Shown in pieces: positions 8,736-27,512 of a DNA stretch of 27,512 nt (its first letter is position 1; every line of letters begins with the position of its first letter). Below the pieces are notes generated by a model. It was not told the origin of the DNA. It did no database searches and saw only the letters and a list, made by a program, of their open reading frames with translations. This stretch comes from Pseudomonadota bacterium (GTDB lineage: Bacteria > UBA10199 > 2-02-FULL-44-16 > JAAZCA01): positions 1-27,512 of the forward strand of contig JAZDOG010000015.1 in the NCBI GenBank assembly GCA_043798915.1, written 5' to 3'. The translations under genes and the position numbers were made by a program.

Positions 8736-9965
8736 TTAATTTGACAACGCAAAGTTTGCGAGGAGACCGATGTGACTGCCAAATCTGTCAGTGATCTCTA
8801 TCCTGAATTCATCTCCTCTTGCGGCCTGAACGCTGACATCCAGCTGTGCGGGAAAGAGCGGTGACACCTGTATTTGCTCGATGATGCGTCGGCGTCCCCT
8901 GGATATCTGCAGGATGTCAGCCCGGCCTTCGAAGAAGACGCCGAAAGAGCCGGTGAGTCTTTCTCCATCGAGCGCGAGCGGCGCGCATGTTATGCCAATT
9001 GTATTAATACCCGTGACGTCGCCTGCGCATCTCGCGGCCCCGATGAGAAACTCATCGGCCCTGTGTTCGCCGGGAGCCAGGGTCACAAGACTCCCCGTCG
9101 CCTCGAGTTCGTAATATGAGCTTTCGATGATGCCCGTGTACAGCTGAATCGAGCTGCCGCCGTCGGGGTATTGCGCGCCGGGGATATTATGCGGAGCCTG
9201 GAGCGCGAAGACGCCGCCGTTTGACGCGTGATACGGGCGCTGCCGGGCTGCTATCCAGGAGCGTCCGTCAAAACCGAGTTTGCATTCGTTTCCGGTGTAA
9301 GTGATTTTTGTTACGTCTTCGCGGGTATCGCCGCTGATGGGTTTGGCCGCCGGATCGCCCATCAGCACTGTGTAGCCGAGTTTCATTTTCGAAGCGGGCG
9401 AGGGGGGGATGAATATTCGAGAGGCCCCGGCGATTCCCGATAGCTGGACGATGATCCAGTTGGCCCAGGTCCGGGGCCGCTCGGTCATGTTGGTCATCGA
9501 CGGCGTCACCCGGACGAGCGACGAGGATGGCACGGATTCAAATCGCGTCGCGAGCTTGAGACCCAGGATGTCCGGGTCGTGTGCCTCGAGCCTGATGGCG
9601 TTGCCTCCCTCGACAACCATGGTGCGCGGGCTGTTCAGGGCCGGGGGCGGCGGCCAGTCGCGGCCCCAGGGTGTATCCCTCCACTGGCCTTGCGGCGCCA
9701 CGTCGGTCCTCACTCCCCCGAAGTTGTGGAACTCCGATGTGTCGTCCCCTGTCGCCGCATATATCCTGCCCCTCTCGCGTGCGGAGGTGTAGAGCATCTC
9801 CTCCCATGTGCCATGTGGCGCGGCCGGATACGGGGCCAGCGAATATTGCCACAGGCGCGCGGCCTCGCCGGCGACGATAAAGGACATGCACTGGTTTGCT
9901 ACGGAAACGGCATCCCATCCCGCGATGCCTGCCGGACTGATCGTTGGCAATAACAGTGGATTCAT
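8736..9965 (-). CDS. DUF4380-like protein (galactose mutarotase-like beta-sandwich); start moved to ATG 9965
   Basis: HNFGGVRTDVAPQGQW...WPPPPAL, MTN...RTWANWIIVQL and YYELEATG resemble DUF4380 proteins. ATG 9965 forms an ATGA overlap with the upstream stop at 9964-9962. Confidence 0.6.
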   Translation of the reverse strand: MNPLLLPTISPAGIAGWDAVSVANQCMSFIVAGEAARLWQYSLAPYPAAPHGTWEEMLYTSARERGRIYAATGDDTSEFHNFGGVRTDVAPQGQWRDTPWGRDWPPPPALNSPRTMVVEGGNAIRLEAHDPDILGLKLATRFESVPSSSLVRVTPSMTNMTERPRTWANWIIVQLSGIAGASRIFIPPSPASKMKLGYTVLMGDPAAKPISGDTREDVTKITYTGNECKLGFDGRSWIAARQRPYHASNGGVFALQAPHNIPGAQYPDGGSSIQLYTGIIESSYYELEATGSLVTLAPGEHRADEFLIGAARCAGDVTGINTIGITCAPLALDGERLTGSFGVFFEGRADILQISRGRRRIIEQIQVSPLFPAQLDVSVQAARGDEFRIEITDRFGSHIGLLANFALSN

Positions 9966-12883
9966 TTTTCCGTTCTCAGTGCTGTCCTGAACCATCTCGC
10001 CCGCCCCCAGCGCGGGGGAGGAGTGCCCATGTCCCTTGATATACTATAATGATCGAAGAGCCAATCCCTCTCGCCGAAAAATTTCCTTATCGCATCGCCG
10101 TGCGGACCGCTGCGCGCGGCCCACGTTGCGATGAGAAGGCCTCGACGGGCCTGCCTGCGGCCCGGTTCCAGGTCGACGGCGAGTTGATCGAGCATGTTCA
10201 GGTAGTGCGCGGCGTCTGCCGCAGGGACGGCTTTTTTTCCGCCAGCCGCGAGCATCGACGAAACCATCATGAAATATCTCTCTTCCGGTCTTGTCTCAAA
10301 CGGTTCGTCCTTGCCCCTGGTCGTGAATGCGAATGCGAGAAATGGGGAGAGATGTTCGACGAGCGTGCGGCCGGTGAGCGGCATCCAGAATCGCCAGCGC
10401 GTGCCGGCCTGAGCGGCCTGGGTCAAGAGCTTCTGCGCCGCATCTGCCTTGGGGGCGGCGATCTTCTCGCGGAAATCCCCGCGCATCGAGGCGCCTGCAA
10501 CCGGTTCCGATGCGACGCGCGTCATCCACGGGCATTGGATGAAAGTCTGGCACACCATCGAAGCCAGCGTTCCACCCCAGGTCGACCAGCCGAACATGAT
10601 CCTGAAGAAATTGCCGAGCGTCTCCGCGGAGAATGAGCGAAGCGCCTTGTTTTGCCACAGCCTCAGCTGGCCGAAGCCGAGGAGGAGGGCATGGGCAAAA
10701 CCGATCGGGATGAGGCCGATCTGTATCGCCATCGATGCCCCGAAGCTTTCGGAAAAAGTGTGAGGGCGGATTGCCCCCAGCAACATCTGAGCACCCACTC
10801 CTGCATATGTCACCTCAAGCAGCGGCGCGCGCAGGAAGTTGGAAAAATCCCAGCCCGTTGGCCTGATGCCGCTCATCAGCTGGTCGCGCGCCTGGAAGCC
10901 CACCGCGAGGCCGGGAATCACCCAGGCATCCTTCGGCGCGACGCCCAGCGAGAGGGCGAAGTCGGTTGCCAGAAGCCATGCGCCGGGCAGGAGAGAGAGC
11001 TCGAGCGCCCTCGTGAGCCGCGGATGGGAGGCGATCGCCCTGTTGCGCAGCTCGGGGCTGAACATCGTCGCACCGGCCCAGATCCCTGCGCCCACTTCCA
11101 TCACCGTCGCGAGGTCTTTTATCTCGAGCGAACCCGGGCTTATCCCCCGCACTCCGTTCAGCGGATTTCCTCCGACCCAGGAGAGAAAGCGGTGATCGGC
11201 GCCGAGGAACGCGCTGACCCCGGACCCGAAGGTCGTGGAGCCGCTGAAGGCCTTCCAGAACTGGCTCAGGCCGTCCGCAAATCCTGATCTTCCGATCAGG
11301 TCCCAGAGCGCGCTGCCCTGCTGCAGGGCCGGTGAGACAAGGCCTGCCATCGCGCTGCCCGGACCATGGAGCTGCGCCGTGTTGCCGGACGCATTGGTGA
11401 CGAGATGGCCGACGACCGGAACGCCGGCGAGAGACTGAAGTCCCGGGACCGCGCCGCCATAGATCATGTAGGTCGCGCCGAGTTCCCCAACCCTTGCGGC
11501 GCTGTCGCCCATCGTCTGGAGCGGAGTCCGTATCGAGTAGCCGGTGGCCAGCGCCTGCCCTGCCTCCGGAGAGGCAAACCCATTCATGAGTTTTCTTGCG
11601 CCGGAGGCAAATGTCGCTCCTGCGCCTGAGAATTGCATCAGCGTCGGCGCGTCGTGGTGACCCGCGAGCGCACCCCACGCCATCGCTGTCAGCGCCCCGA
11701 CGGCAGAGATCGCCCAATAATCGCCGCCGGATGAATGCGTGGCCTCTGCGAGACCAGCGCTCACCGCCGCGCCCCAGTGTCCCCTGGCACGGAGCTCGCG
11801 AAGCCTTCCCTTGTCATCCAGGAGGGGCGCGATCGGGCTTTCGGCCGAGGCCATGGACTCCGCCGCCAGCGTTTCGGGATACAATCGGAACAGGTCGCCG
11901 GCAATTTCGCGCGCTCGAAGCGAATAGCCGTGCGCCATCATCTGTCTGATCGCAAAGGCGTGCAGCTCCGAAGCGATGAATCTTTCCTGAGCGCGATTCT
12001 CGCCCGGGCCTTCTTCCTGGAGAAGATAATTGATTTCGTGCAGCTCTGCGATCGCGCGGGTGTACGCGGCGTTCCTTGCGTCGCGCGTCCTCTCAGCGGC
12101 ATGCTGCATGTGGATGTCGAATCTGCCCATCAGCGACTGCAGGTAGATGAGCCGTTCGGCGGGGTCCTTGATGTTCGTCTGGCCGCCGGAGTCCTGCAGC
12201 CGGGTCACGTTGGCCGTCAGAAGTTCCAGGGCCGTCGCCGCGCTTCCATGAGTCCTCCGCACGAGGTTTGCGCGGGCCAGGCGCTCATGCGACAGGAGTT
12301 CGGAATTGCCGCTCTGCGCCGCCTGGTTCCGCACACGGTCCAGGGCTCCGTAGGTCGCGGCATCCGCGCCTGCAAACCAGTTGGCTTCTCCCAGGGTGCA
12401 GAGCGCATACTCCGCGTCGGCCAGTGCGCCGTCTCTGTCGAGGGTTTGTCTTGTTTCACGAAACGCATTTCCGGCTGCCGCGACATCTCCCTGCATGAGG
12501 AGTGCGAGGGCGCTGGATAAATCAAATCCCTCAGCCGTCGCAGCTCGGTGGAATGATGAGGGGACGACCAATTTCGGCCCGAGGATCGCTTGAGCCAGTT
12601 CGTTGCCGTCCGATGCTGCGGCGTAGGCGCTTCTGAGATGGACATTTGCCGGCTGTCCCGTCAGCGGGGCATAGACGTTCGGAGGCGGCGCGTTCCAGCC
12701 GATCAATCGCTGAAGCGTCCCCAGCTGTGGAAATGTGACGGAAGGTGCAAAAGGTTGGACCGTCGGGGTCAGCGCGACAGCGGGTGCAGGCGGTGCCATG
12801 TCCCTGTGGAATCCTCTCCCGGAGCCAGCCCCCGCGGCGCCGCTGGTTTCGGAATCCCTATCAAAGCGGCCCGCTGCTTTCAA
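9962..12883 (-). CDS. Large hypothetical protein: helical (TPR-like) N-half, multi-hydrophobic-segment C-half; distant member of the giant-protein family in this window
   Basis: 973-codon ORF; start may be ATG 12799 (MAPPAPAV). Segment APLLDDKGRL...hydrophobic pair...ASPEAGQALATGYS parallels APQVFTAGGKL...ASEQYRQASMTGIS in 17177-22063. Confidence 0.75.
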   Translation of the reverse strand: MKAAGRFDRDSETSGAAGAGSGRGFHRDMAPPAPAVALTPTVQPFAPSVTFPQLGTLQRLIGWNAPPPNVYAPLTGQPANVHLRSAYAAASDGNELAQAILGPKLVVPSSFHRAATAEGFDLSSALALLMQGDVAAAGNAFRETRQTLDRDGALADAEYALCTLGEANWFAGADAATYGALDRVRNQAAQSGNSELLSHERLARANLVRRTHGSAATALELLTANVTRLQDSGGQTNIKDPAERLIYLQSLMGRFDIHMQHAAERTRDARNAAYTRAIAELHEINYLLQEEGPGENRAQERFIASELHAFAIRQMMAHGYSLRAREIAGDLFRLYPETLAAESMASAESPIAPLLDDKGRLRELRARGHWGAAVSAGLAEATHSSGGDYWAISAVGALTAMAWGALAGHHDAPTLMQFSGAGATFASGARKLMNGFASPEAGQALATGYSIRTPLQTMGDSAARVGELGATYMIYGGAVPGLQSLAGVPVVGHLVTNASGNTAQLHGPGSAMAGLVSPALQQGSALWDLIGRSGFADGLSQFWKAFSGSTTFGSGVSAFLGADHRFLSWVGGNPLNGVRGISPGSLEIKDLATVMEVGAGIWAGATMFSPELRNRAIASHPRLTRALELSLLPGAWLLATDFALSLGVAPKDAWVIPGLAVGFQARDQLMSGIRPTGWDFSNFLRAPLLEVTYAGVGAQMLLGAIRPHTFSESFGASMAIQIGLIPIGFAHALLLGFGQLRLWQNKALRSFSAETLGNFFRIMFGWSTWGGTLASMVCQTFIQCPWMTRVASEPVAGASMRGDFREKIAAPKADAAQKLLTQAAQAGTRWRFWMPLTGRTLVEHLSPFLAFAFTTRGKDEPFETRPEERYFMMVSSMLAAGGKKAVPAADAAHYLNMLDQLAVDLEPGRRQARRGLLIATWAARSGPHGDAIRKFFGERDWLFDHYSISRDMGTPPPRWGRARWFRTALRTEK

Positions 12884-16991: not shown

Positions 16992-17176
16992 GAGAACATG
17001 TTGTGGATTGCGCTCTTTCTCCGCGAACTATAATGAGGAACCATTGTGCCTGGAGCACAACGAACGTTCGTCGATGGATGACAGAAATGCCTTGTCAAAC
17101 CTATATCGACGGGATAGTAGCGCCGTTCTTTCAGAAGTGCTCGTTGTTTGCGGTGGGGGGGATGTGAGGAGGGGGT

Positions 17177-20100
17177 ATGGGAGATTCCGGCAAGGTCGGC
17201 AGCTCATCGCCCAACGCGCAGACGTGTTCCAGCTGCCACGACCTTTCGGCCAAAAAGACTGTGCTCGATTCGTCGCACGCGCCGTCTTCTTGTTCTTCTC
17301 TGTTCGCGCACCAATCTTCATCTTCAACAACTCGCGCCTGGCCTTCCCACGAAGACTCCATTTTATCACCCGACAAGGATGAGATCAAAAAAAGCGCTTC
17401 GGATTCTGGAGCGCCGGACTTCGATTTCGCATCGATCCTGAGAAGCGAACGCGATTCACACTTTAGAGAAGATGCCTCGCTGAAAACGTGCAGCGCATGC
17501 TACGCAACTACGATAAACCATGGCCTCTTTTCAGAGACCTCCCCGGCAGTATCAGGACAGCCTTTTCAAAACACGGCGCCTGGCCATGTGTCGCCGCTGA
17601 TGGCGCTGGTGGAAACGATGCCTGCGGCGATTCCGCCCGATGCTTCTCTGGAAGGCGAATTGAAAGGCGCCATGGCCGCCTTCAAGAAGGCCGTCGATGG
17701 CGGCGATCAGGCGGCTCAGGAGAAGGCCTTCGAGAAGATTATTGAGACCGGCGCTCGCCGCCACCACCTTGAAGGTCTCTACGCCAGCCTGGAAAAAAGC
17801 AAACAGACAAAAAGAATAATTGAAAGTGAAGTTAAGAAGGAAAAAGAGCTGCTCAGAGCGAGTCTGCATTCGAGTTCATCGTGTCACGATGATCCGGCGG
17901 ATGCCGTTGCGAAAAAGACCAGACAAAAGGCCGTCGAATTCGAAAATGATCTTCGCCGGAACGATCCCGTATCAAAACAGGACGAGGTCATTGCGGCCCG
18001 CAGGAAGATCAGCGAGGAATCGCTGTCGGCATTCGAGAGCGACCTCCTTGAAGCAGTGGGTCAGATCGACCGGAATAATCCTTTCAACGACGGTGTGCCT
18101 CAGGAGCTGACTCTCTCCCCTGTCGCCGCGTCCATTTTCGCCGACACATTCAAGTCGTTCGGCGATTTTGATCGCGCGAAGAAATACTATAATATTGCGA
18201 GCGCCAGCCCTGTGCAGTCGGCAAGCGGAGGTGCATGGTATCACATGCAGGCGCTTGAAATGGATGTCTATTCCGGCGATCAAGAAAGAATCAAAGCGTC
18301 GATAAAAGTGGTCGAAGAAGTCAGGGACGGACTCACCGATTTGCTTTTCAGGGCCTATGACGAACAAATAATTGAAGAGCGTCCGCAGATGATGCCTGTC
18401 GGCACACCGAGCCAGGTCTACGAGCTGGATGCGCTGAGGTGGGGAATCCTCTATGACGCATATACCCAGCTCGACGGAGACAATAAGGCAGAACTTCAGG
18501 AGCTTGAAAAAGAGCGCCGTCAGATGGTGGCAGGTCGAATTGGAAAGGCCACCGCCGTCGAGGCAAGGCTCCATATTCGCAATATGGATCGCGTCGCCGT
18601 CTTCAAGACGGCTCGCTCCGGGGATATCGAACGGGCCCTGCGCGAGGAAGACCAGAACGCGGCCGCCGTCGACCAGCGTCAGCTCATAGATGACGTCCAT
18701 GCCGTGGAAAGGCTCGTAAAGCCTTACCTGAAGCCGGAAAAGGGGGACGTCTTTTTCGAGCAGGTGGCGACCCTCTACTGGCGAACATATTTCAACGGCA
18801 ACTTCGTACGCGATCTCCCACAGGCCGCAATATTCGATGTTTCGGATTTTGTGTTGAAGCCGATGACATGCCAGGGCTATGGCGTGGCACTGGGAGAGAC
18901 GAATTATATCGAATCCCAGTTAAAACAACTCCGCCAGGTCGCACCGCAGGTCTTTACGGCCGGCGGAAAACTCAACCGCGATGTCGATCTCTCCGGGACG
19001 GCGCAGGGCGAGGATGCCGCCAAACGCGTGATGAGCGCCTATTGGAAGAGCAACGATGCCGTGCGGGAAGCCGGCGTGCCTTTGGGACTAGGCGTAGGCT
19101 GTTTTGCGACCGGAGCTTTCTTTTCCGAAACCGTTATCATCCCCATGGTCGCCGCACTCCTATGCGGTTCAGGAGGAAGCTTCCTCAATCGTGAGATCAA
19201 TAAATCATCGGCCTCGGAACAATACCGCCAGGCCTCGATGACAGGCATCTCCGTGATCGGCGAAAAAGAAGCAGGCAGAATGCGCTCCGGCTGGTACTTC
19301 AGCGAGGGAATAAACAATCTCTTCAATGCCGCGGCTGTAGTTCCGATGGCGGCACTTTGGGGCAGGCTCGGGACACAAGCCGTCAAGGCCGGGCTCGCGG
19401 GTGCAGGCACATGGGCGTTCGCTGAAACCGGCGGACGCGCCCTCATGAAATCCATGGCCTCTTCCCCGCTGAAATTCGCAGGCAGTGCAATGGCGGGAAT
19501 AGGAAGGGGCGGAAAGGCGGCCCTCGGGTGGTACTGGAAGCTGCCGATCGGCACGAAATTCCGCGTTGCGGGTACGGGTGCAGGCCTGGGCGCAGCCGTG
19601 GCTGATTATGCGCTTATAGACAGGGATGGGAATTTTGTCTGGGGGGACGGCGAGTTGGACCACTGGTACGGTTATGCGGGCCTTGCCGCGGGCATGAGCG
19701 AAGGCGGATATCGCCTCTTCAAGGCTTCGTGGCGGTCGGCCTTCGCGGAGGCCGTCGGCAAGAGCCGTGTCAGATCCGGTCTGATCAGGCTTGGCACGGA
19801 TATGGTTGCCGTCGATTATTATATGGTCAAACCGAAAAAAGACGGCGGCTATGAATTCGTGGATTTCGGCGCCCCGCGAAAAACCCCCATCGAGAAACAT
19901 GACTTTGAAAAACAGTTTGACGTCGATACGTGGTTCGGCAGAGGCGGGCTGATGCTCGCGAGCGGCGACTGGATGCAAAGCGAATGGGGAATAATGAGCA
20001 ACTGGGACAGAGCTTTTTTAGGCGCCGGAAGCGTCCCTTTCCTGGTCGACGTGGCGTCGGATGGCGAATTAAACAAATGGTATGGCGGGCTGGGCGGATC

Positions 20101-22063
20101 GGTTGCCGTCTCCGTGCTGGGCAACAGACTTCTCAATGTCAGCGCCGCCGGGTCAATGATATTCCTGCCGATGAAACTGAGTTACGAATATCTGATGCAG
20201 CTGCAGCAGGACGTCGAGCCGACGGCCCCCGACCCAAAACGCATGATGTCGTCTACCGCGGAATCCATATTCATGATGATGTTGGTCAAAGGGACGTATC
20301 AAGGCGCCCACTATTGGAATACCTTTCCGTTTGGAAAAAATATGCTCAGGGCTTCCGAAAGGATTCCAGTCGTAAGGAATTTCCGCGGCATTCAGAATTG
20401 GGGCAATTATGCCTGGCTTGGCAATCAGACCATCGAAGTGGAAGGCAGTCCGAAGATGACAATTCATACCGGTTCTCCCCAGATCGAATCGTGGAAACCT
20501 GTTGAAGTATCGCCCTTGAACACGAGGAAGGTCAACGGCCCCGCAGGCAAGGGTGTGGAGATCAATTACAAGTTGCGCGGGGACAAGCTCTGGAACGGCG
20601 CCGATGGCGGGCAAAAGGATCAGCTGCTCCGTATTGTGCGAAGAGGCGCGTCGACCAAATTTTATCTCAACGAAACAGCGGTTACCGAACAGGATCTCCT
20701 GAATCAGGGCTATCTCTGGCGGGAAGAAAAGTTGACGTCGTTCCAACCCGATAGAAAGGGTGCGATTCGCATGTTCGGGCGCAAAATGACCGTGGATGAG
20801 GTCCAAAACCTCAACGATGGAGCCCGCTCCAAGGCTTTGGGCGAGCTGAAAGACCATGGCTGGCGGCCGAATGGCGATCATTTTGAACGGTGGTGGATCG
20901 AACATCCGTATCACCCCGAAGTGCTGCTTGAAAATCCGACCAGTGCAATGAGCACCGCCGATTTCAAGATACTGAAGTCGGTTGTTGAAGTAGGCGGCAA
21001 GGAAGTCCCCGTGTGGCTTAAGTTTTCAAGGCGCACCGTATCCGCAGATCAAGTTGTCGTCGGAGGAAGTGAAATAACTTTGTGGAAGGGGTTGCGTGAG
21101 AAACCAAGGTTCACGATTGCCGGAGTCGGCGCGCAGTTCTTCCCCATCGTCGCTGAGGCCTGGGGCGCCAACAGCCTCATATTTAGAAAAACGGCGAGCG
21201 GCGATCCCAGTTACCAGCCCTTGCAGCGCGTGTCCAACTATGTGCCGACGATTCTTGGCACATGGCCATTCATACAGGCGCCGCGGGGCATGGATACAGT
21301 GTCGGCAAGGTTTTGGGGTGGGGTTGTCGGCTACGCCCCTAATTTACTTGGAAATGCCCTCTTTCCCGCCTACCGCAACACGGCGCCGGGACAAGTGAGG
21401 CTTTACAACCATCTCGATGCCGGCGGCAGCACGGACTCATCGTGGTGGAATCCGCTGCAGATGGTGCTGTCTTCAGGCGATGCATTCGAATCGTTTGGAA
21501 AAATTACTACGAGTCTCAATGTTGGGCCGTGGGGTCCGGCCCGCGGCTCTACGTACGAAATTGAAGATATCGCGATGGACAACCTGCGCTATGGCCTCAA
21601 TTGCCGGATGGATATGGCCCATGGCAAAAAAATGCGCGAGTCGGAGGCGTGCGTCATGCTGCCTGAAAAGACGCAAAAGCAAATTCTCGATACGGACAGG
21701 GGCGTCAATCCCGATAAGATGAAGCGCCGCTTTGACGCATGGGCAAAGATATTTCGCGAGAAGATGGATGTCGAGAGGAAGGGCGATCTCTCAGAGAGAG
21801 ACCGCCGCCTTGTGATCGTCCTGGGCGCATGGTTCAAATCTCTCGTCAATACCCGGGGCGACCAGGTGGAGCTTGTCAACCTCAAACAATTGATATCTGA
21901 TTACGGCTGGTTTTTCGATAAAACCCCGAATCTTTCGACGGATTCGGAATGGAATGATTACATCTCCCAGGTCAATGGAGGCCGCTCGAATATGTCGAAC
22001 TTCTATTTTGACCCGCATATGCAGGACAGTGCCGCGCCCGCAGTTGATGAAACAATGCAATAA
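17177..22063 (+). CDS. Giant hypothetical protein (1628 aa) with N-terminal CxxCH, helical region and Gly-rich hydrophobic core; putative secreted effector/toxin
   Basis: Long ORF with RBS GAGGAGG; TCSSCH at 17222-17239; hydrophobic Gly/Ala-rich segments from about 19070; clear paralog at 24817 onward. Confidence 0.85.
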   Translation: MGDSGKVGSSSPNAQTCSSCHDLSAKKTVLDSSHAPSSCSSLFAHQSSSSTTRAWPSHEDSILSPDKDEIKKSASDSGAPDFDFASILRSERDSHFREDASLKTCSACYATTINHGLFSETSPAVSGQPFQNTAPGHVSPLMALVETMPAAIPPDASLEGELKGAMAAFKKAVDGGDQAAQEKAFEKIIETGARRHHLEGLYASLEKSKQTKRIIESEVKKEKELLRASLHSSSSCHDDPADAVAKKTRQKAVEFENDLRRNDPVSKQDEVIAARRKISEESLSAFESDLLEAVGQIDRNNPFNDGVPQELTLSPVAASIFADTFKSFGDFDRAKKYYNIASASPVQSASGGAWYHMQALEMDVYSGDQERIKASIKVVEEVRDGLTDLLFRAYDEQIIEERPQMMPVGTPSQVYELDALRWGILYDAYTQLDGDNKAELQELEKERRQMVAGRIGKATAVEARLHIRNMDRVAVFKTARSGDIERALREEDQNAAAVDQRQLIDDVHAVERLVKPYLKPEKGDVFFEQVATLYWRTYFNGNFVRDLPQAAIFDVSDFVLKPMTCQGYGVALGETNYIESQLKQLRQVAPQVFTAGGKLNRDVDLSGTAQGEDAAKRVMSAYWKSNDAVREAGVPLGLGVGCFATGAFFSETVIIPMVAALLCGSGGSFLNREINKSSASEQYRQASMTGISVIGEKEAGRMRSGWYFSEGINNLFNAAAVVPMAALWGRLGTQAVKAGLAGAGTWAFAETGGRALMKSMASSPLKFAGSAMAGIGRGGKAALGWYWKLPIGTKFRVAGTGAGLGAAVADYALIDRDGNFVWGDGELDHWYGYAGLAAGMSEGGYRLFKASWRSAFAEAVGKSRVRSGLIRLGTDMVAVDYYMVKPKKDGGYEFVDFGAPRKTPIEKHDFEKQFDVDTWFGRGGLMLASGDWMQSEWGIMSNWDRAFLGAGSVPFLVDVASDGELNKWYGGLGGSVAVSVLGNRLLNVSAAGSMIFLPMKLSYEYLMQLQQDVEPTAPDPKRMMSSTAESIFMMMLVKGTYQGAHYWNTFPFGKNMLRASERIPVVRNFRGIQNWGNYAWLGNQTIEVEGSPKMTIHTGSPQIESWKPVEVSPLNTRKVNGPAGKGVEINYKLRGDKLWNGADGGQKDQLLRIVRRGASTKFYLNETAVTEQDLLNQGYLWREEKLTSFQPDRKGAIRMFGRKMTVDEVQNLNDGARSKALGELKDHGWRPNGDHFERWWIEHPYHPEVLLENPTSAMSTADFKILKSVVEVGGKEVPVWLKFSRRTVSADQVVVGGSEITLWKGLREKPRFTIAGVGAQFFPIVAEAWGANSLIFRKTASGDPSYQPLQRVSNYVPTILGTWPFIQAPRGMDTVSARFWGGVVGYAPNLLGNALFPAYRNTAPGQVRLYNHLDAGGSTDSSWWNPLQMVLSSGDAFESFGKITTSLNVGPWGPARGSTYEIEDIAMDNLRYGLNCRMDMAHGKKMRESEACVMLPEKTQKQILDTDRGVNPDKMKRRFDAWAKIFREKMDVERKGDLSERDRRLVIVLGAWFKSLVNTRGDQVELVNLKQLISDYGWFFDKTPNLSTDSEWNDYISQVNGGRSNMSNFYFDPHMQDSAAPAVDETMQ

Positions 22064-22159
22064 TGACGCCGCACTGTGCATTAAAATTGACTTTTTCCGC
22101 ATACTGTATTCACTAATGCCCTCCTTAAATTATCTCAACATGAAGAGAAGAGGGGATAT

Positions 22160-23509
22160 ATGGCCAGCCGACTGATCGCAGCGCTCGCAGCTCAACCGCA
22201 TGCAACACCGATTGCCGACCCCAAAGAAATAAAATCCAAATACCGCAAATGGCGCATCCAGACGATGTATTCGATGATGATTGGATACGCCATTTATTAT
22301 TTCCTGCGAAAGAATTTTTCCATGGCGATGCCCGTCTTCTTGACGGAGCTGGGCTATACGAAGACGGATCTGGGCCTTATTCTGACGCTTTTTTCGGTGG
22401 TCTACGGTTTTTCCAAATTCATCAACGGCGTCCTGGCAGACAGGTCCAATCCGAGATACTTCATGTCCATCGGCCTTTTCTTTTCGGCCCTTGTGAATAT
22501 CTTCTTTGGGTTCTCATCGTCCCTTTTTGCGTTCGGCATATTCTGGCTCCTCAACGCATGGTTTCAGGGGATGGGCTGGCCGCCGTGCGCAAGGCTTCTC
22601 ACCCACTGGTATTCGCCCACCGAGCTCGGGACAAAGTGGGGCCTTTGGAATGCGTCCCATCAGCTCGGCGGGGCCGGGATCCTCGTTCTTGCCGGCTGGT
22701 TGATACCCGCCTACGGATGGCGTTCGGCCTTCTTCGTCCCTTCCGCAATTGCCGTGTGCGCGGCATTATTTCTGATCCTCACGCTTCGGGACACGCCGCA
22801 ATCCCTGGGGCTTCCCCCGGTCGAAGAATATCGCGGCGAGGCGAGTGTCAAGGACGAGCATGAAGACACGGCGGAATCGGTCAAGGAGATACTTTTTAGA
22901 TACGTCCTCACAAACAGACTGATCTGGCTCATATGTGTCGCCAATATATTTGTCTACATCGTCAGGATAGGCGTGCTGGATTGGGCGCCCACCTTTTTGT
23001 ATGAGCAAAAGCAGTGTTCGATGCTGAACGCCGGCATCATCACGGCCATATCCGAGGCGATGGGCATCGCAGGGGCGATCGCCGCGGGCTGGATATCCGA
23101 TGTCGTCTTCAAGGGAAGAAGGGGGCCGGCGAACGTGATCTTCATGCTTCTTCTGATAATGGCCATATTCGGGCTCTGGCGCGTCCCGCCCGGCCATCAG
23201 GTGCTTACCACCATTTATCTCATCGCCGTGAAATTTTTCGTCTATGGACCGCAGATGCTCGTGGGTGTGGCGGTGGCGGATTTAGCATCAAAGAAGGCCT
23301 CTTCGACGGCGACGGGTCTGGCGGGGACTTTTGGCTATATCGGCAGCGCTCTTTGCGGCGTGGGAACCGGCGTCGTCGTTGATAAATGGGGGTGGGACGG
23401 CGGCTTTATTTTCTTCATAGCAGCGGCCGTGATCGGCACGTTCCTGTTCCTGTTCACATGGGGCTATCGTTCAGCTGCCCTCGAGAACATCCACAATAAT
23501 CGCAAGTGA
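22160..23509 (+). CDS. MFS organophosphate:Pi antiporter (OPA family; UhpC/GlpT/UhpT-like)
   Basis: IGYAIYYFLRKNF, YGFSKF..G.LADRSNPRYFM, NAWFQGMGWPPC, WNASHQLGG, LRDTPQSLGLPPVE, YGPQML, TATGLAGTFGYIG. Confidence 0.93.
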   Translation: MASRLIAALAAQPHATPIADPKEIKSKYRKWRIQTMYSMMIGYAIYYFLRKNFSMAMPVFLTELGYTKTDLGLILTLFSVVYGFSKFINGVLADRSNPRYFMSIGLFFSALVNIFFGFSSSLFAFGIFWLLNAWFQGMGWPPCARLLTHWYSPTELGTKWGLWNASHQLGGAGILVLAGWLIPAYGWRSAFFVPSAIAVCAALFLILTLRDTPQSLGLPPVEEYRGEASVKDEHEDTAESVKEILFRYVLTNRLIWLICVANIFVYIVRIGVLDWAPTFLYEQKQCSMLNAGIITAISEAMGIAGAIAAGWISDVVFKGRRGPANVIFMLLLIMAIFGLWRVPPGHQVLTTIYLIAVKFFVYGPQMLVGVAVADLASKKASSTATGLAGTFGYIGSALCGVGTGVVVDKWGWDGGFIFFIAAAVIGTFLFLFTWGYRSAALENIHNNRK

Positions 23510-23534
23510 AGGACGAGACAATTCCATCCACCGG

Positions 23535-23666
23535 AAGACGGGAGATGTCATTTTGAATCTCGGTCTCCGCGGCCGGGCGCTCATCGTCGCCGATGAAACG
23601 ACGTGGGGCCTCGCCGGACAGGGCGTTGCCCGATCGATCGAAAAGGCCGGCCTCGACTCGCCATAA
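23535..23666 (+). pseudogene. Remnant of a glycerol-1-phosphate dehydrogenase (EgsA/AraM)-like or related DHQS-fold gene
   Basis: Intergenic frame reads KTGDVILNLGLRGRALIVADETTWGLAGQGVARSIEKAGLDSP*, resembling the N-terminal part of G1P dehydrogenases; no convincing start and only about 43 codons. Confidence 0.5.
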
Positions 23667-23712
23667 TCGCTAACCAATTGATTCCTAAAGCTAATATTTT
23701 TAAAAAAATCAC

Positions 23713-23739
23713 GCAACATTTTATCTGGTTTTGCGATAA
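23713..23739 (+). promoter_or_regulatory. Sigma-28 (FliA)-like promoter
   Basis: GCAACATT-N11-TGCGATAA, about 55 nt before the ATG at 23793. Confidence 0.55.
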
Positions 23740-23792
23740 CTATAGCGGATACGGCTGTGCTGCAAACGGGAATGTGCTGCAGGAGGCGTGAT

Positions 23793-24629
23793 ATGAGTGA
23801 CACAGGCGATGGGACAACCGCGGTGGCAAAATGCCCGGAGGGCTCAGTCTTGATTCCTCGCGGCGCGTTTCAGATGGGATGTGATGATCACGATGATAAA
23901 GGTAACGAGCTTGAGAGGCTGTTGCCCAGATGCAACGATATTGAGGCGCCGCCGCACCCCGTCGAGATAAGCCAGCCGTTCTGCATTGACGAGTACACAT
24001 TCACCGAGCGGAAGATGGAAGAGTTGAAAAGGGCAAAACCCGGGCGTTTCGATCACATCAAGACGACTTGTAATATCGATGCTCAGACCGGCTTGCTGGC
24101 GAGGATCAAGCGCCGGATTGGACTGGGGCCGGTTCGCGCGACCGAAACGTGTGAAAAACCTCTGGTGGGGGTAACCTGGCATGATGCGGCTGCCATCTGT
24201 TCGGCGCGGGGCATGAGGCTTCCCACCGAGGCGCAGTGGGAGTACGCCGCGCGAGGGGTGTCGGGGATAGATGAATATATGGGCCAGCCCACCGAGAGGA
24301 TGGAATATCAACTGAAAAAGTTTCGCAGTGGCCCGGTTCGAGATTGGAGGCTGGTTGTAGATAGAACGATGAGCAACAGTTGGGGTGTTTACGGCATGAG
24401 CGACAACATTCGGGAATGGGTGAGTGACTGGCTGGGGCCGTATTCGCCCTCGGCGGTCCAGGATCCCGCGGGTCCCGCCACCGGTTATTCCAGGGTCCTT
24501 CGCGGAGGCAGCTGGGTCATGCTCGACCTGTCGACGTTTCGAACGTCCAGCCGCTACGGAGCCGACCCCAAGGCCAAGAGCGACTTCATGGGATTCCGAT
24601 GTGTGGCGGATTCCATATCAGAAAAATGA
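23793..24629 (+). CDS. FGE-sulfatase / SUMF1 domain (C-type lectin fold) protein; start moved to ATG 23793
   Basis: CPEGSVLIPRGAFQMG, PLVGVTWHDAAAIC, RLPTEAQWEYAARG, NSWGVYGMSDNIREWVSDW, RVLRGGSW, GFRC; RBS AGGAGG precedes ATG 23793. Confidence 0.9.
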   Translation: MSDTGDGTTAVAKCPEGSVLIPRGAFQMGCDDHDDKGNELERLLPRCNDIEAPPHPVEISQPFCIDEYTFTERKMEELKRAKPGRFDHIKTTCNIDAQTGLLARIKRRIGLGPVRATETCEKPLVGVTWHDAAAICSARGMRLPTEAQWEYAARGVSGIDEYMGQPTERMEYQLKKFRSGPVRDWRLVVDRTMSNSWGVYGMSDNIREWVSDWLGPYSPSAVQDPAGPATGYSRVLRGGSWVMLDLSTFRTSSRYGADPKAKSDFMGFRCVADSISEK

Positions 24630-24683
24630 GTTCCAGGAAATGCCGGTTTTACGGTCATTTGCGGGCGAACGTCCAGATAACAC

Positions 24684-24710
24684 GCAACTTTTTCGTGGAA
24701 ATGCCGATAC
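24684..24710 (+). promoter_or_regulatory. Sigma-28 (FliA)-like promoter
   Basis: GCAACTTT-N11-GCCGATAC upstream of the 24817 gene. Confidence 0.65.
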
Positions 24711-24728
24711 TTATAATGGGAGGTCCTT

Positions 24729-24806
24729 ATGTGCGGAACGCGGATCGGGTCTCCGAAAGCGGTCGATGATGACGGGGCTTTAGTCCAATCCGGGGGAGTA
24801 GTGTGA
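24729..24806 (+). CDS. Candidate 25-aa upstream ORF (MCGTRIGSPKAVDDDGALVQSGGVV)
   Basis: GGGAGG RBS 5 nt before ATG 24729; its TGA overlaps the RBS of the 24817 gene. Confidence 0.3.
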   Translation: MCGTRIGSPKAVDDDGALVQSGGVV

Positions 24807-24816
24807 GGAGAGGGGC

Positions 24817-27512
24817 ATGGGAGGCGCTGGCAAGGAAATAACATGCTCAAGCTGCCACAGTATTTCACGGAAAAGAACCGCGCTCGATTTATCATCCGGC
24901 GAGAAGGAAATAATAAACGCATTCGCAATGCATGAGAGGAGCGCAGCCGCGCCCTCGCATCTTCCCGATGAGTTTCAATTCGTCGCTCGAAGCATGCTCA
25001 CCGGCATGAATGCTTTTAATATGCCGGTGATGAACATGAAGTGCCTGGGGCCTCTGAACGATTCCACGATAGTTCCTTACGCGGCAGCGGTTGAATCCGA
25101 TGGCGGGAAGGTCGACCCGCTTCGGGGAGAGCCCTTCGCGGCGCTTCCCGCTGCGATCTCGGGTGAGAACGGGTCTGCCGGCGCAGGCGCGCTCGATTCA
25201 TATGTGAGAGATCTCCATCATCGAATGGGCATCGATGGGCTTGAGGGGAGGATCAAGCAGCTTTCCTCCGGCGAAGACGAGCATTATGCCAGGATGAAAG
25301 AGGCCATCAAGGCAAGGTACGTCGCCAGAACGGTCATCTCCTGCCACGACGGCAATTATCGCGATCCGGAGCTTGTGCGGCAGGAACAAACCGCGCTGAA
25401 GGCGCTCGACGAGGCCCGCAGCTCCGACGTCGACGTCCTCACGGATATCCGCGACAGGCTGGTGAAAAAGCTGGAGGACAATGTCCTTCTTGCCGTGCGG
25501 ACGGCCCTCTCTCCTGAGGACGCAAAGAGAATCGACCTCGCTTTGAGCGCCGACGTTCATTCCGTCTTCGCGACCATATTGGAATCGCTGGGCGAGAAAG
25601 ACGCCGCGATGAGGCAGTTTGCCCTGGCCGGCAACCAGGCTGCGGAGCAGACCGACGCGGTCTTCTACCAGCTGCGCGCCATGCAACAGCTCTCCGGCAG
25701 GGAGCTGGCTGGATGGAGGAATGAGCTTCGCGATATCCTGGAGAAGAAGCTTCCTGCCCTGGAGTCCGTCGCGCGAAAAACCGAGGCCAGATTTGCGGCA
25801 GTCGAGAAGACGAGCAGGGCGACGGAAGAATTGGTGGGACGGCTGATGATGGCGGAAGATGAATCTCATATCGCCGCCCTCATGCGGGAGTTCGAAGGCG
25901 AACACGGCGAGGAATTTTCGGCGCTGGCCGATCCATCCGACAGCGTTCCGATGCCGGTGCTTCCGATGCTCGAGGACCGGTCGGACGGCGTTTCCATGCG
26001 GGGTTTTGCGGATCCGATGGGCGGCGGTTTCGTGCCGGGGTTGCAGGGAGCGGATCAGGAGGAAATGGCCGTTTATGCCGACAGGCGGCCGCCGGGCTCT
26101 GCGGAAAAAGTTCATCCGACGTGGACCCTTGCATGGAAGCTCCTCTACGAAGCCGAACAGAGCGCCGAAGAGCCCGACCTCGACGCCCTGCTGGAGCTCG
26201 ACGGGAAATTTTTCAGGAAAGTCGGCGATCGTGTCGCCGAGACGAAGGGCCATGTGCCTTTGCAGGAGTCCGTGCTTTACGCCGGCAACGCGGGCCAGAT
26301 TCTCATGCGGGCCACTTCCCGGATGGGCCGCATCGAGAAAGAGCTGCTCGACGGAGGGAGAGGCAAGGCTGAAGGCGCCTTTGATTTCTACCGGCGCGGC
26401 GCCGAGACGGTGATGCGGTCCATGGCGGAACATGCGGAAGGCGATTCAGGGGCATGGGTGCGGGAGATGATCGCCGGGCTCGACATGCGGCTCAATTTCG
26501 ACGGCCGCATGGCTATGCACCGCTACGTGGATGCGATGGATGGTTCGTTGCCCAGACTCATCAAGGAGCACGGCGATACCGAGAGCGCTCAGGACCGCTT
26601 CAAGGCGCTCAAGGAACTCTATCCGGACCACTTCACGCGGGAGGGCGCAGTTCTGGCCGGCGTGGATTTTTCGAAGACCGATGAGGGGCGCGACGCGGCT
26701 GCTCGCGAGCGCTCGCTCTATCTCACCAATGGCGACATAACCACGGACATGCTGGTGACAGCCGCCGGCAGTCTTGCGGGCGCCGGCCTGGGGTGTGTCG
26801 TGGGCGGCATCATATGCGGCGCGGCGGGCACCGTGGAACCAGGGGGGGGAAACGCCGCAGGGGCAACCATTGGATGCAAGGTCGGGGCGTACATCGGCGG
26901 GGTGCTTGGCGGCGCAGGTTCCGAGGCGGCCAACATGGCCTATAATGTGTCCAGGCATGCCGACGATGTCGAGGCGGCCCGAAGGTCCGGTGTGACGCTT
27001 GTGACAAGACAGGAGCACGATCGCTACAGAATGATGGCGGGCGTTTATCTCGGGGGCGCAGCAGCAAGCGGGCTGCTCTTTGCGAGGCCCGGCATGCTGC
27101 TTGGCGGCAGCGCGATCAAGGCGTCCTCGGCTGTGGCCGGGCGCTACGTAGCGGCAGGCGGAGCGCGCGGGATTGCGGAGGCGGCGTCCGGCGCGATCCG
27201 ATCCGGCATCAGGGCCACGGGCGACGTGTTTCGATTCACGTTTGAGAGCCCCAGGCTCGCCTTTGCGACCGCTGCTGAAGGCGCTGGAGGAATGATGGAG
27301 CGCGGGATTGAGGGGCTGACACGGCATATCTCGCAGTTCGAGATTAAATCGGAGGTTCCGAAGGCGATGCTCCGGTTCCTCTTCGGCACCGGTGGAGCTC
27401 GTCTTTCGGAAGCGGAACTCAAGCAATCATTCTGGATCCGTCAGTTGATCATTCATGGAATGAGGGCAGCAGAGGATGGGTCGCTCAAATTTCAAAGCTG
27501 GAGGAAGGGTTT
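24817..27512 (+). CDS. Giant hypothetical protein (>898 aa, runs off the window), paralog of 17177-22063; absent from the supplied ORF track
   Basis: Manual translation from ATG 24817 (RBS GAGGAG) has no stop to the window end: MGGAGKEITCSSCHSISRKRTALD... with many blocks matching the 1628-aa protein and a glycine-zipper segment at about 26760-26920. Confidence 0.88.
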   Translation, partial: MGGAGKEITCSSCHSISRKRTALDLSSGEKEIINAFAMHERSAAAPSHLPDEFQFVARSMLTGMNAFNMPVMNMKCLGPLNDSTIVPYAAAVESDGGKVDPLRGEPFAALPAAISGENGSAGAGALDSYVRDLHHRMGIDGLEGRIKQLSSGEDEHYARMKEAIKARYVARTVISCHDGNYRDPELVRQEQTALKALDEARSSDVDVLTDIRDRLVKKLEDNVLLAVRTALSPEDAKRIDLALSADVHSVFATILESLGEKDAAMRQFALAGNQAAEQTDAVFYQLRAMQQLSGRELAGWRNELRDILEKKLPALESVARKTEARFAAVEKTSRATEELVGRLMMAEDESHIAALMREFEGEHGEEFSALADPSDSVPMPVLPMLEDRSDGVSMRGFADPMGGGFVPGLQGADQEEMAVYADRRPPGSAEKVHPTWTLAWKLLYEAEQSAEEPDLDALLELDGKFFRKVGDRVAETKGHVPLQESVLYAGNAGQILMRATSRMGRIEKELLDGGRGKAEGAFDFYRRGAETVMRSMAEHAEGDSGAWVREMIAGLDMRLNFDGRMAMHRYVDAMDGSLPRLIKEHGDTESAQDRFKALKELYPDHFTREGAVLAGVDFSKTDEGRDAAARERSLYLTNGDITTDMLVTAAGSLAGAGLGCVVGGIICGAAGTVEPGGGNAAGATIGCKVGAYIGGVLGGAGSEAANMAYNVSRHADDVEAARRSGVTLVTRQEHDRYRMMAGVYLGGAAASGLLFARPGMLLGGSAIKASSAVAGRYVAAGGARGIAEAASGAIRSGIRATGDVFRFTFESPRLAFATAAEGAGGMMERGIEGLTRHISQFEIKSEVPKAMLRFLFGTGGARLSEAELKQSFWIRQLIIHGMRAAEDGSLKFQSWRKG

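Follow-up and report, generated by a model that had tools for sequence, protein, structure and literature searches.

What are the two giant, unannotated proteins encoded by this stretch of DNA, and what do they do? The window analyzed here, meaning the whole stretch of 27,512 nt, is contig C71 of the metagenome-assembled genome (MAG) G000, which comprises 2.34 Mb in 105 contigs and is 97% complete. The window carries one giant gene, which we call A, and the first part of a second, B. The original prediction regarded the two as paralogous, membrane-inserting effectors with the layout of polymorphic toxins, that is, a conserved N-terminal delivery region followed by variable C-termini. By sequence comparison, A and B instead represent a new, rare, unannotated family with two subfamilies, whose genes commonly lie beside that of an organophosphate:phosphate antiporter. 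Our tentatively preferred explanation is that the giant protein is held by its hairpin in the membrane of the cell that makes it, as a partner of this adjacent antiporter, and has both of its large parts in the cytoplasm. The two genes are placed as follows:

17177–22063, + strand: gene A, 1628 amino acids (aa), an A-type member, given by the open reading frame (ORF) and its translation, with seven full-length orthologues at 43–51% identity.
24817–27512, + strand: gene B, a B-type member, of which the first 898 codons lie in the window with no stop before the window end; the rest is on contig C79, 11551–9224, – strand.

The ORF that had been proposed to run from 24817 to the end of the window does exist: it starts with ATG and continues for 898 codons without a stop. 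The window runs on into C79, since the last 141 bases of C71 (window 27372–27512) are identical to the reverse-complemented end of C79 (11412–11552) and this overlap has a single occurrence in the genome. Read across the overlap, the frame of gene B reaches a stop at C79 position 9224 (minus strand, from 11551), yielding a protein of 1627 aa. The join is supported by colinear B-type homologues such as P0062, which cover the C71 piece (residues 121–859) and then the C79 piece (residues 37–755), in that order. It is also supported by gene order in the related genome G018, where genes for a glycerol-1-phosphate-dehydrogenase-like protein, a HAD phosphatase, RlmN and MTAP come after an A-type gene and its transporter gene. 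On C79, beyond the join, the 3′ half of B and a second antiporter are trailed by these same four genes and a thioredoxin reductase gene.

The region common to A and B comprises their first ~800 residues. BLASTP aligned A 16–361 with B 9–290 (22% identity, E 3e-8) and A 407–749 with B 425–780 (25% identity, E 3e-14), so the in-order N-terminal alignment that had been made by eye is borne out. A hidden Markov model (HMM) for the hairpin module, from which B had been left out, matched B at E 1.1e-39 in a search of the 7026 ORF frames of the genome. With this model G000 was found to hold two members only, A and B, which contradicts the idea of a family expanded in this genome.

Past the hairpin, the original prediction saw no further similarity between the two proteins. 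This is correct at the level of BLASTP, which gave no match between A and full-length B past about residue 780, but it does not hold for profiles. Profiles of the C-terminal halves, built from 31 A-type and 10 B-type sequences, were aligned with each other, with reversed profiles as controls. The two were colinear over A columns 124–805 and B columns 18–717, with a score of 48, E of 1.3e-4 and a probability of 53%, whereas the reversed-profile controls gave scores of 18–19 and E of 0.4. Blocks common to the A- and B-type halves were GG.GGS...NR, an EW.MQ.QQD.P...PDP.R region, and GDP.YQP.QR...P.G.DT..A. Together with the BLASTP matches in the N-terminal and central parts and the near-equal lengths of the proteins after the join (1628 and 1627 aa), the colinear profiles suggest that A and B are most likely homologous from end to end, with a strongly diverged C-half.

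The likeness of the two genes also extends to their translation starts:

17163–17183, + strand: start region of A, with a GAGGAG-type ribosome-binding site and the ATG, from alignment with the B upstream region.
24802–24823, + strand: start region of B, which matches that of A in the upstream-region alignment.

These regions are nearly identical, reading TGTGAGGAG(A)GGGG(T/C)ATGGGAG, even though the proteins are just about 25% identical. This could reflect local gene conversion, or an element for regulation or ribosome binding that both genes have in common.

Each protein appears to consist of four parts: a variable, probably disordered N-terminal tail, a solenoid resembling tetratricopeptide repeats (TPR), a tight two-helix, Gly-rich hairpin, and a large C-half. 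Their positions in the window are:

17177–17596, + strand: variable N-terminal tail of A, residues 1–140, 0–28% identical to orthologues, carrying CSSCH (residue 17) and CSACY (residue 105).
18089–19036, + strand: putative TPR-like alpha-solenoid of A, about residues 305–620, the core of the part common to A and B.
19058–19210, + strand: membrane hairpin of A, about residues 628–678 (Kyte-Doolittle segment 632–671; model helices 69–90 and 95–119).
19574–22060, + strand: C-terminal half of A, residues 800–1628, comprising a helical region, a beta domain and a helical domain.
20429–21112, + strand: beta domain within the C-half of A, about residues 1085–1312, from the structure model.
26746–26934, + strand: hairpin and glycine zipper of B, about residues 644–706 (Kyte-Doolittle segment 644–676; charge-free run 645–673).

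In A, the hairpin is formed by two hydrophobic, Gly-rich helices with a two-residue turn between them (helices numbered in the model of residues 560–1628), and its hydrophobic segment, 632–671, has two lobes divided at Glu651. In B, hydrophobic segment 644–676 is accompanied by a second helix that is Gly-rich with GxxxG spacing, as read directly in the sequence. The Gly-rich hydrophobic hairpin described previously is thus present in both proteins. In a Kyte-Doolittle scan this central hairpin was the sole segment above 1.3 in A and in B; because it is the only strongly hydrophobic stretch, neither protein has an N-terminal signal-like segment, in agreement with the earlier view that neither starts with a Sec-type sequence.

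A CxxCH motif is found near the N-terminus of A (residues 17–21, nt 17225–17239), of B (residues 10–14, nt 24844–24858) and of six more members of both types. An SCHD/SCHA motif lies deeper in the protein (A residues 235–238, nt 17879–17890) and, together with CxxCH, recurs in a minority of members from both subfamilies. These motifs may form a metal site. Attachment of a c-type haem at CxxCH is unlikely, as there is no signal peptide. We also considered N-terminal myristoylation; the starts MGDSGK and MGGAGK do not match its consensus.

A structure model of A residues 560–1628, made from a 36-row alignment, had a predicted local distance difference test (pLDDT) value of 82.4 and a predicted template modelling (pTM) score of 0.75. 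It contains, in order, the hairpin helices, a low-confidence Gly/Ala-rich stretch, a helical region, the beta domain and a helical C-terminal domain. The C-half of A was confidently modelled, yet in the searches run no solved structure matched its fold. The N-half of the family appears TPR-like; the TPR-domain scaffolds compared were PlcR (2qfc), TTC0263 (2pl2), ComR (5jub) and LGN (4wng). A sequence search of the PDB returned weak TPR matches only for the family profile and none for the C-part of B, and the homologue search with the latter found none among longer proteins. The C-half of B carries about eight ALTPxEKxxLxRL-like repeats (B residues about 1090–1320; C79 about 10140–10830, minus strand; ~240–470 of the C79 part), a run that is skipped by 8 of 9 B-type homologues.

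How widespread is this family? Searching 1.84 billion representatives with a profile of A residues 560–1628 gave 84 clusters at E <= 1e-3. None of the seven full-length A orthologues bears an informative name. Ten members were looked up, and the five that are named all read "hypothetical protein"; four of these are NCBI records of Pseudomonadota or Deltaproteobacteria MAGs. Within a phylum sample of 93 genomes, all from one class, the A-type profile matched 20 and the B C-half 7, with a union of 23. As far as we can see, the family is limited to MAGs of one uncultured lineage.

The view that A and B belong to an uncharacterised paralogous family agrees with the annotation searches. There was no Pfam family for A or B at E <= 0.1, or for the C79 part of B at E <= 0.001, and no NCBIfam family for A or for either the window part or the C79 part of B. 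With PADLOC and PHROGs, the only match to either protein was phrog_3405, at E 0.0033 on the Gly-rich hairpin of B, which we take as low complexity. The best ESM Atlas matches (0.81 for the whole protein, 0.79 for residues 800–1628) were within the range reached by shuffled proteins, and those to MCR-alpha and PT-TG were discarded. In the literature, we found no paper that contains the accessions or locus tags of four members, and none that joins an organophosphate antiporter, a hydrophobic hairpin and tetratricopeptide.

Two kinds of unusual members were observed. Short forms with only a B-type C-half and hydrophobic segments of their own adjoin the antiporter gene in G070 (636 aa, L052 6389–8296) and G035 (815 aa, L041 7095–9539). 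The closest A orthologues in the genome set contain in-frame stops, one TGA and one TAG in G018 (L037, C30) and one TGA in G016 (L038, C60); the stops may reflect pseudogenes, errors in assembly or recoding.

Are the C-halves exchangeable toxin domains behind a conserved delivery region? The key features of polymorphic toxins, as given in the parts of Zhang et al. (2012, Biol Direct 7:18, PMC3482391) on which we draw, are an adjacent immunity gene and C-terminal diversity through cassette recombination. A and B resemble such toxins in being large multidomain proteins that have an N-terminal part in common and become less alike towards the C-terminus, where BLASTP cannot align their C-halves. 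Several relatives carry tandem copies of members, e.g., G013 (C3, 80–92 kb) and G014 (C33, 102–112 kb), and there is a noise-level Atlas match (0.78) to a PT-TG cluster. However, the post-hairpin regions of 68 long members fell into just two BLASTP single-linkage groups, 58 A-type and 10 B-type, which are themselves linked by the profiles. Furthermore, the C-half is the best-conserved part. Identity among the seven full-length orthologues of A is 0–28% for residues 1–140, 35–44% for 141–400, 52–62% for 801–1080 and 45–57% for 1321–1628, a gradient opposite to that expected if a conserved delivery part carried a variable toxin tip. The next gene downstream is not a small immunity gene; antiporters of 449 and 448 aa follow A and B, respectively, and the same is seen in 11 genomes. 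Neither A nor B gave a toxin, PAAR, RHS, LXG, VgrG or PT-TG Pfam match at E <= 0.1, and no toxin or trafficking domain was assigned to them through Pfam, NCBIfam, PADLOC or PHROG. The type VI secretion system sheath protein (VipB) and VirB4 were not found in the 97%-complete genome. With every defining feature that can be checked here going the other way, insofar as the consulted parts of PMC3482391 set these out, we reject the polymorphic-toxin layout, which we regard as extremely improbable.

What, then, lies downstream of A and B? The gene after A is:

22160–23509, + strand: organophosphate:phosphate antiporter (MFS, GlpT/UhpC/PgtP-like), 449 aa, with an MFS_1 match at 1.5e-56, starting 96 nt past the stop of A.

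This protein scored 426.5 bits on TIGR00881 (2A0104; cut-off 407.75) and 450.6 on the UhpC subfamily model, and the gap between A and the antiporter gene contains no terminator-like site. On C79, a second MFS protein of the organophosphate:phosphate antiporter (OPA) family, 448 aa in length and 44% identical to the neighbour of A, is encoded 108 nt past the stop of B. Its 353.6 bits on TIGR00881 are under the 407.75 cut-off; the TIGR00881 family is still its best match.

Such pairs were counted by combining coordinates manually in the 23 member-bearing genomes, scoring an MFS gene within 3 kb. An antiporter lay within this distance in 16 of the 23, from 8 families (G000, G013, G017, G018, G019, G020, G026, G035, G040, G054, G055, G056, G057, G066, G070 and G080). 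The MFS gene was downstream on the same strand in 11 of these 16, with most gaps 0–110 nt; it was upstream on the same strand in G055, divergent in G035, and convergent in G054 and G066. In G070, the 636-aa protein with only a B-type C-half is encoded directly before the MFS gene. Two genomes, G008 and G060, have the gene at a contig edge and are not scorable.

In an MFS tree, the neighbour of A grouped (98/91) with the MFS proteins beside A-type members of another family, f2, apart from the clade of its own family, f1. A itself is closest to f2 proteins, with 50–52% identity versus 29–33%. Because the tree grouping and the closest homologues of A involve the same f2 genomes, A and its antiporter gene seem to have been passed on as a unit, by descent or by transfer. 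An IS200-like (Y1) transposase gene is present at the window start (37–978, + strand); together with the f2 affinity of A and its antiporter, it hints at transfer of the pair.

The conserved gene pairing suggests that the giant protein works with the antiporter, and on the explanation that we tentatively prefer, each part of the protein would have a role. The hairpin would place the giant protein next to the transporter in the membrane, possibly in physical contact with it, the TPR part would recruit partners, and the C-half would act on the imported phosphate ester by binding, sensing or processing it. Both large parts would lie on the cytoplasmic side of the cell's own inner membrane, as the turn of the hairpin is only about two residues and Lys/Arg are present on both flanks. 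OPA transporters (GlpT/UhpT/UhpC/PgtP) are a natural comparison. In E. coli, UhpC works with the UhpB/UhpA sensor pair; the neighbouring MFS protein scores in this family, and the Uhp system is a precedent for an accessory protein encoded beside an OPA member. The partner here differs in being ~1,600 aa and belonging to no known family, and neither a histidine kinase nor a response regulator gene was observed next to the pair.

Several observations weigh against this explanation. The topology is based on a crude hydropathy scan. A residues 696–812 form weakly hydrophobic, Gly/Ala-rich helices with low pLDDT that could span the membrane and leave the C-half outside, and the two conserved cysteines of the C-half (DCRxD...SxxC in the consensus) could form a disulfide outside the cytoplasm. 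Nor is the pairing obligatory: five of the 23 member genomes (G014, G016, G021, G023 and G025) have no such MFS gene nearby, or none was found, and of the 37 genomes among the 93 that carry the MFS gene, 20 had no member. In addition, related genomes share synteny by descent, so that the 16 pairings are not independent and should be taken as a tendency rather than a statistic.

These exceptions bear on a second explanation, that A and B are membrane scaffold or remodelling proteins unrelated to the transporter, with the adjacency a product of inherited synteny or of co-transfer without functional coupling. A TPR-like solenoid with a hairpin anchor is a generic scaffold design, and members without the MFS gene occur as well as MFS genes without members. 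In memberless genomes the MFS gene is often beside other ORFs of ~1,100 aa without a Pfam match and a GT4 gene, and other large ORFs without a Pfam match are likewise found beside the same MFS clade in f1 genomes. Nevertheless, the adjacency is kept across 8 families and in four orientations, and each of the two paralogues in G000 has its own MFS copy. We consider an unrelated scaffold doubtful, though it deserves to be kept in mind.

Could the hairpin instead be destined for another cell? Hexose phosphates and other phosphate esters occur mostly inside cells, as metabolites. A and B might be exported, membrane-inserting effectors similar to the chlamydial Inc proteins, made without a Sec signal and perhaps secreted by flagellar-type export, with the hairpin inserted into a host or prey membrane and the antiporter taking up the phosphate esters thereby exposed. 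A bilobed hydrophobic hairpin, the absence of a signal peptide, a variable Ser/Pro-rich N-terminus and, in the second helix of B, glycine-zipper spacing all suit this idea. Inc proteins, in the portions of PMC3048545 and PMC3656976 used here, are specific to Chlamydiae and type III secreted, with a long bilobed hydrophobic domain and no Sec signal. A and B both have such a bilobed domain and lack a Sec signal, and there is little similarity outside the hairpin between subfamilies. Unlike in Incs, the hairpin of A and B is placed mid-protein, after about 630 residues. In addition, the records of their relatives read Bdellovibrio sp., uncultured Myxococcales, and Deltaproteobacteria and Pseudomonadota MAGs, not Chlamydiae.

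A possible export route is present in G000, which encodes FliF, FliG, FliH, FliI, a FliK-like protein, FliM, FliN, FliP and FlhA (C20, about 51–68 kb, L062; C42, L061 9882–12059). In this 97%-complete MAG there was no match to flagellin (PF00669) or to Flg_bb_rod (PF00460), the latter a model of just 31 positions, so that its miss is weak evidence. These genes may specify a filament-less flagellar-type export apparatus. However, FHIPEP is found in 91 of the 93 genomes and the giant family in 23, arguing that there is no specific link between the export gate and the family. Among the neighbours of A and B we saw no gene for a secretion chaperone, needle or translocon, and the strong conservation of the ~800-aa C-half is not what fast-evolving effectors show. 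Export of an Inc-type effector is therefore unlikely in our judgement. One specific version is a two-gene nutrient-piracy cassette, in which the hairpin protein is exported via the flagellin-less apparatus into a neighbour's membrane and the antiporter harvests the neighbour's phosphorylated metabolites; we think this quite improbable. If true, it would be an Inc-like strategy outside the Chlamydiae, in an uncultured anaerobic lineage. The probability left over from the readings given above is assigned to something we have not considered.

One further gene sits between the two giant gene/antiporter pairs:

23757–24629, + strand: FGE-sulfatase-domain gene (PF03781 at 5.1e-36).

In the related loci compared, this gene is not beside family members, and nothing ties it to the unit. 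Elsewhere in the window, an ORF of 973 aa (9962–12883, – strand) has no Pfam, NCBIfam or PADLOC match. It shows weak similarity, 22–25% identity, to large ORFs of relatives, one of which is directly upstream of the same antiporter clade (L048 3939–7379) and another near the A-type gene of G016 (L038 12184–16863). It may represent a second unannotated large-protein family.

In summary, a false toxin label has been removed from A and B, and their family now has a definition, with clear boundaries, two subfamilies and a partner open to testing. If the exported-effector explanation were true instead of the one we prefer, a lifestyle directed at hosts or prey would be indicated. Should the pairing be functional, the giant protein would be a previously unseen type of accessory protein for the well-studied GlpT/UhpT family, very large and hairpin-anchored, and the pair would reveal phosphate-ester handling in this uncultured lineage.

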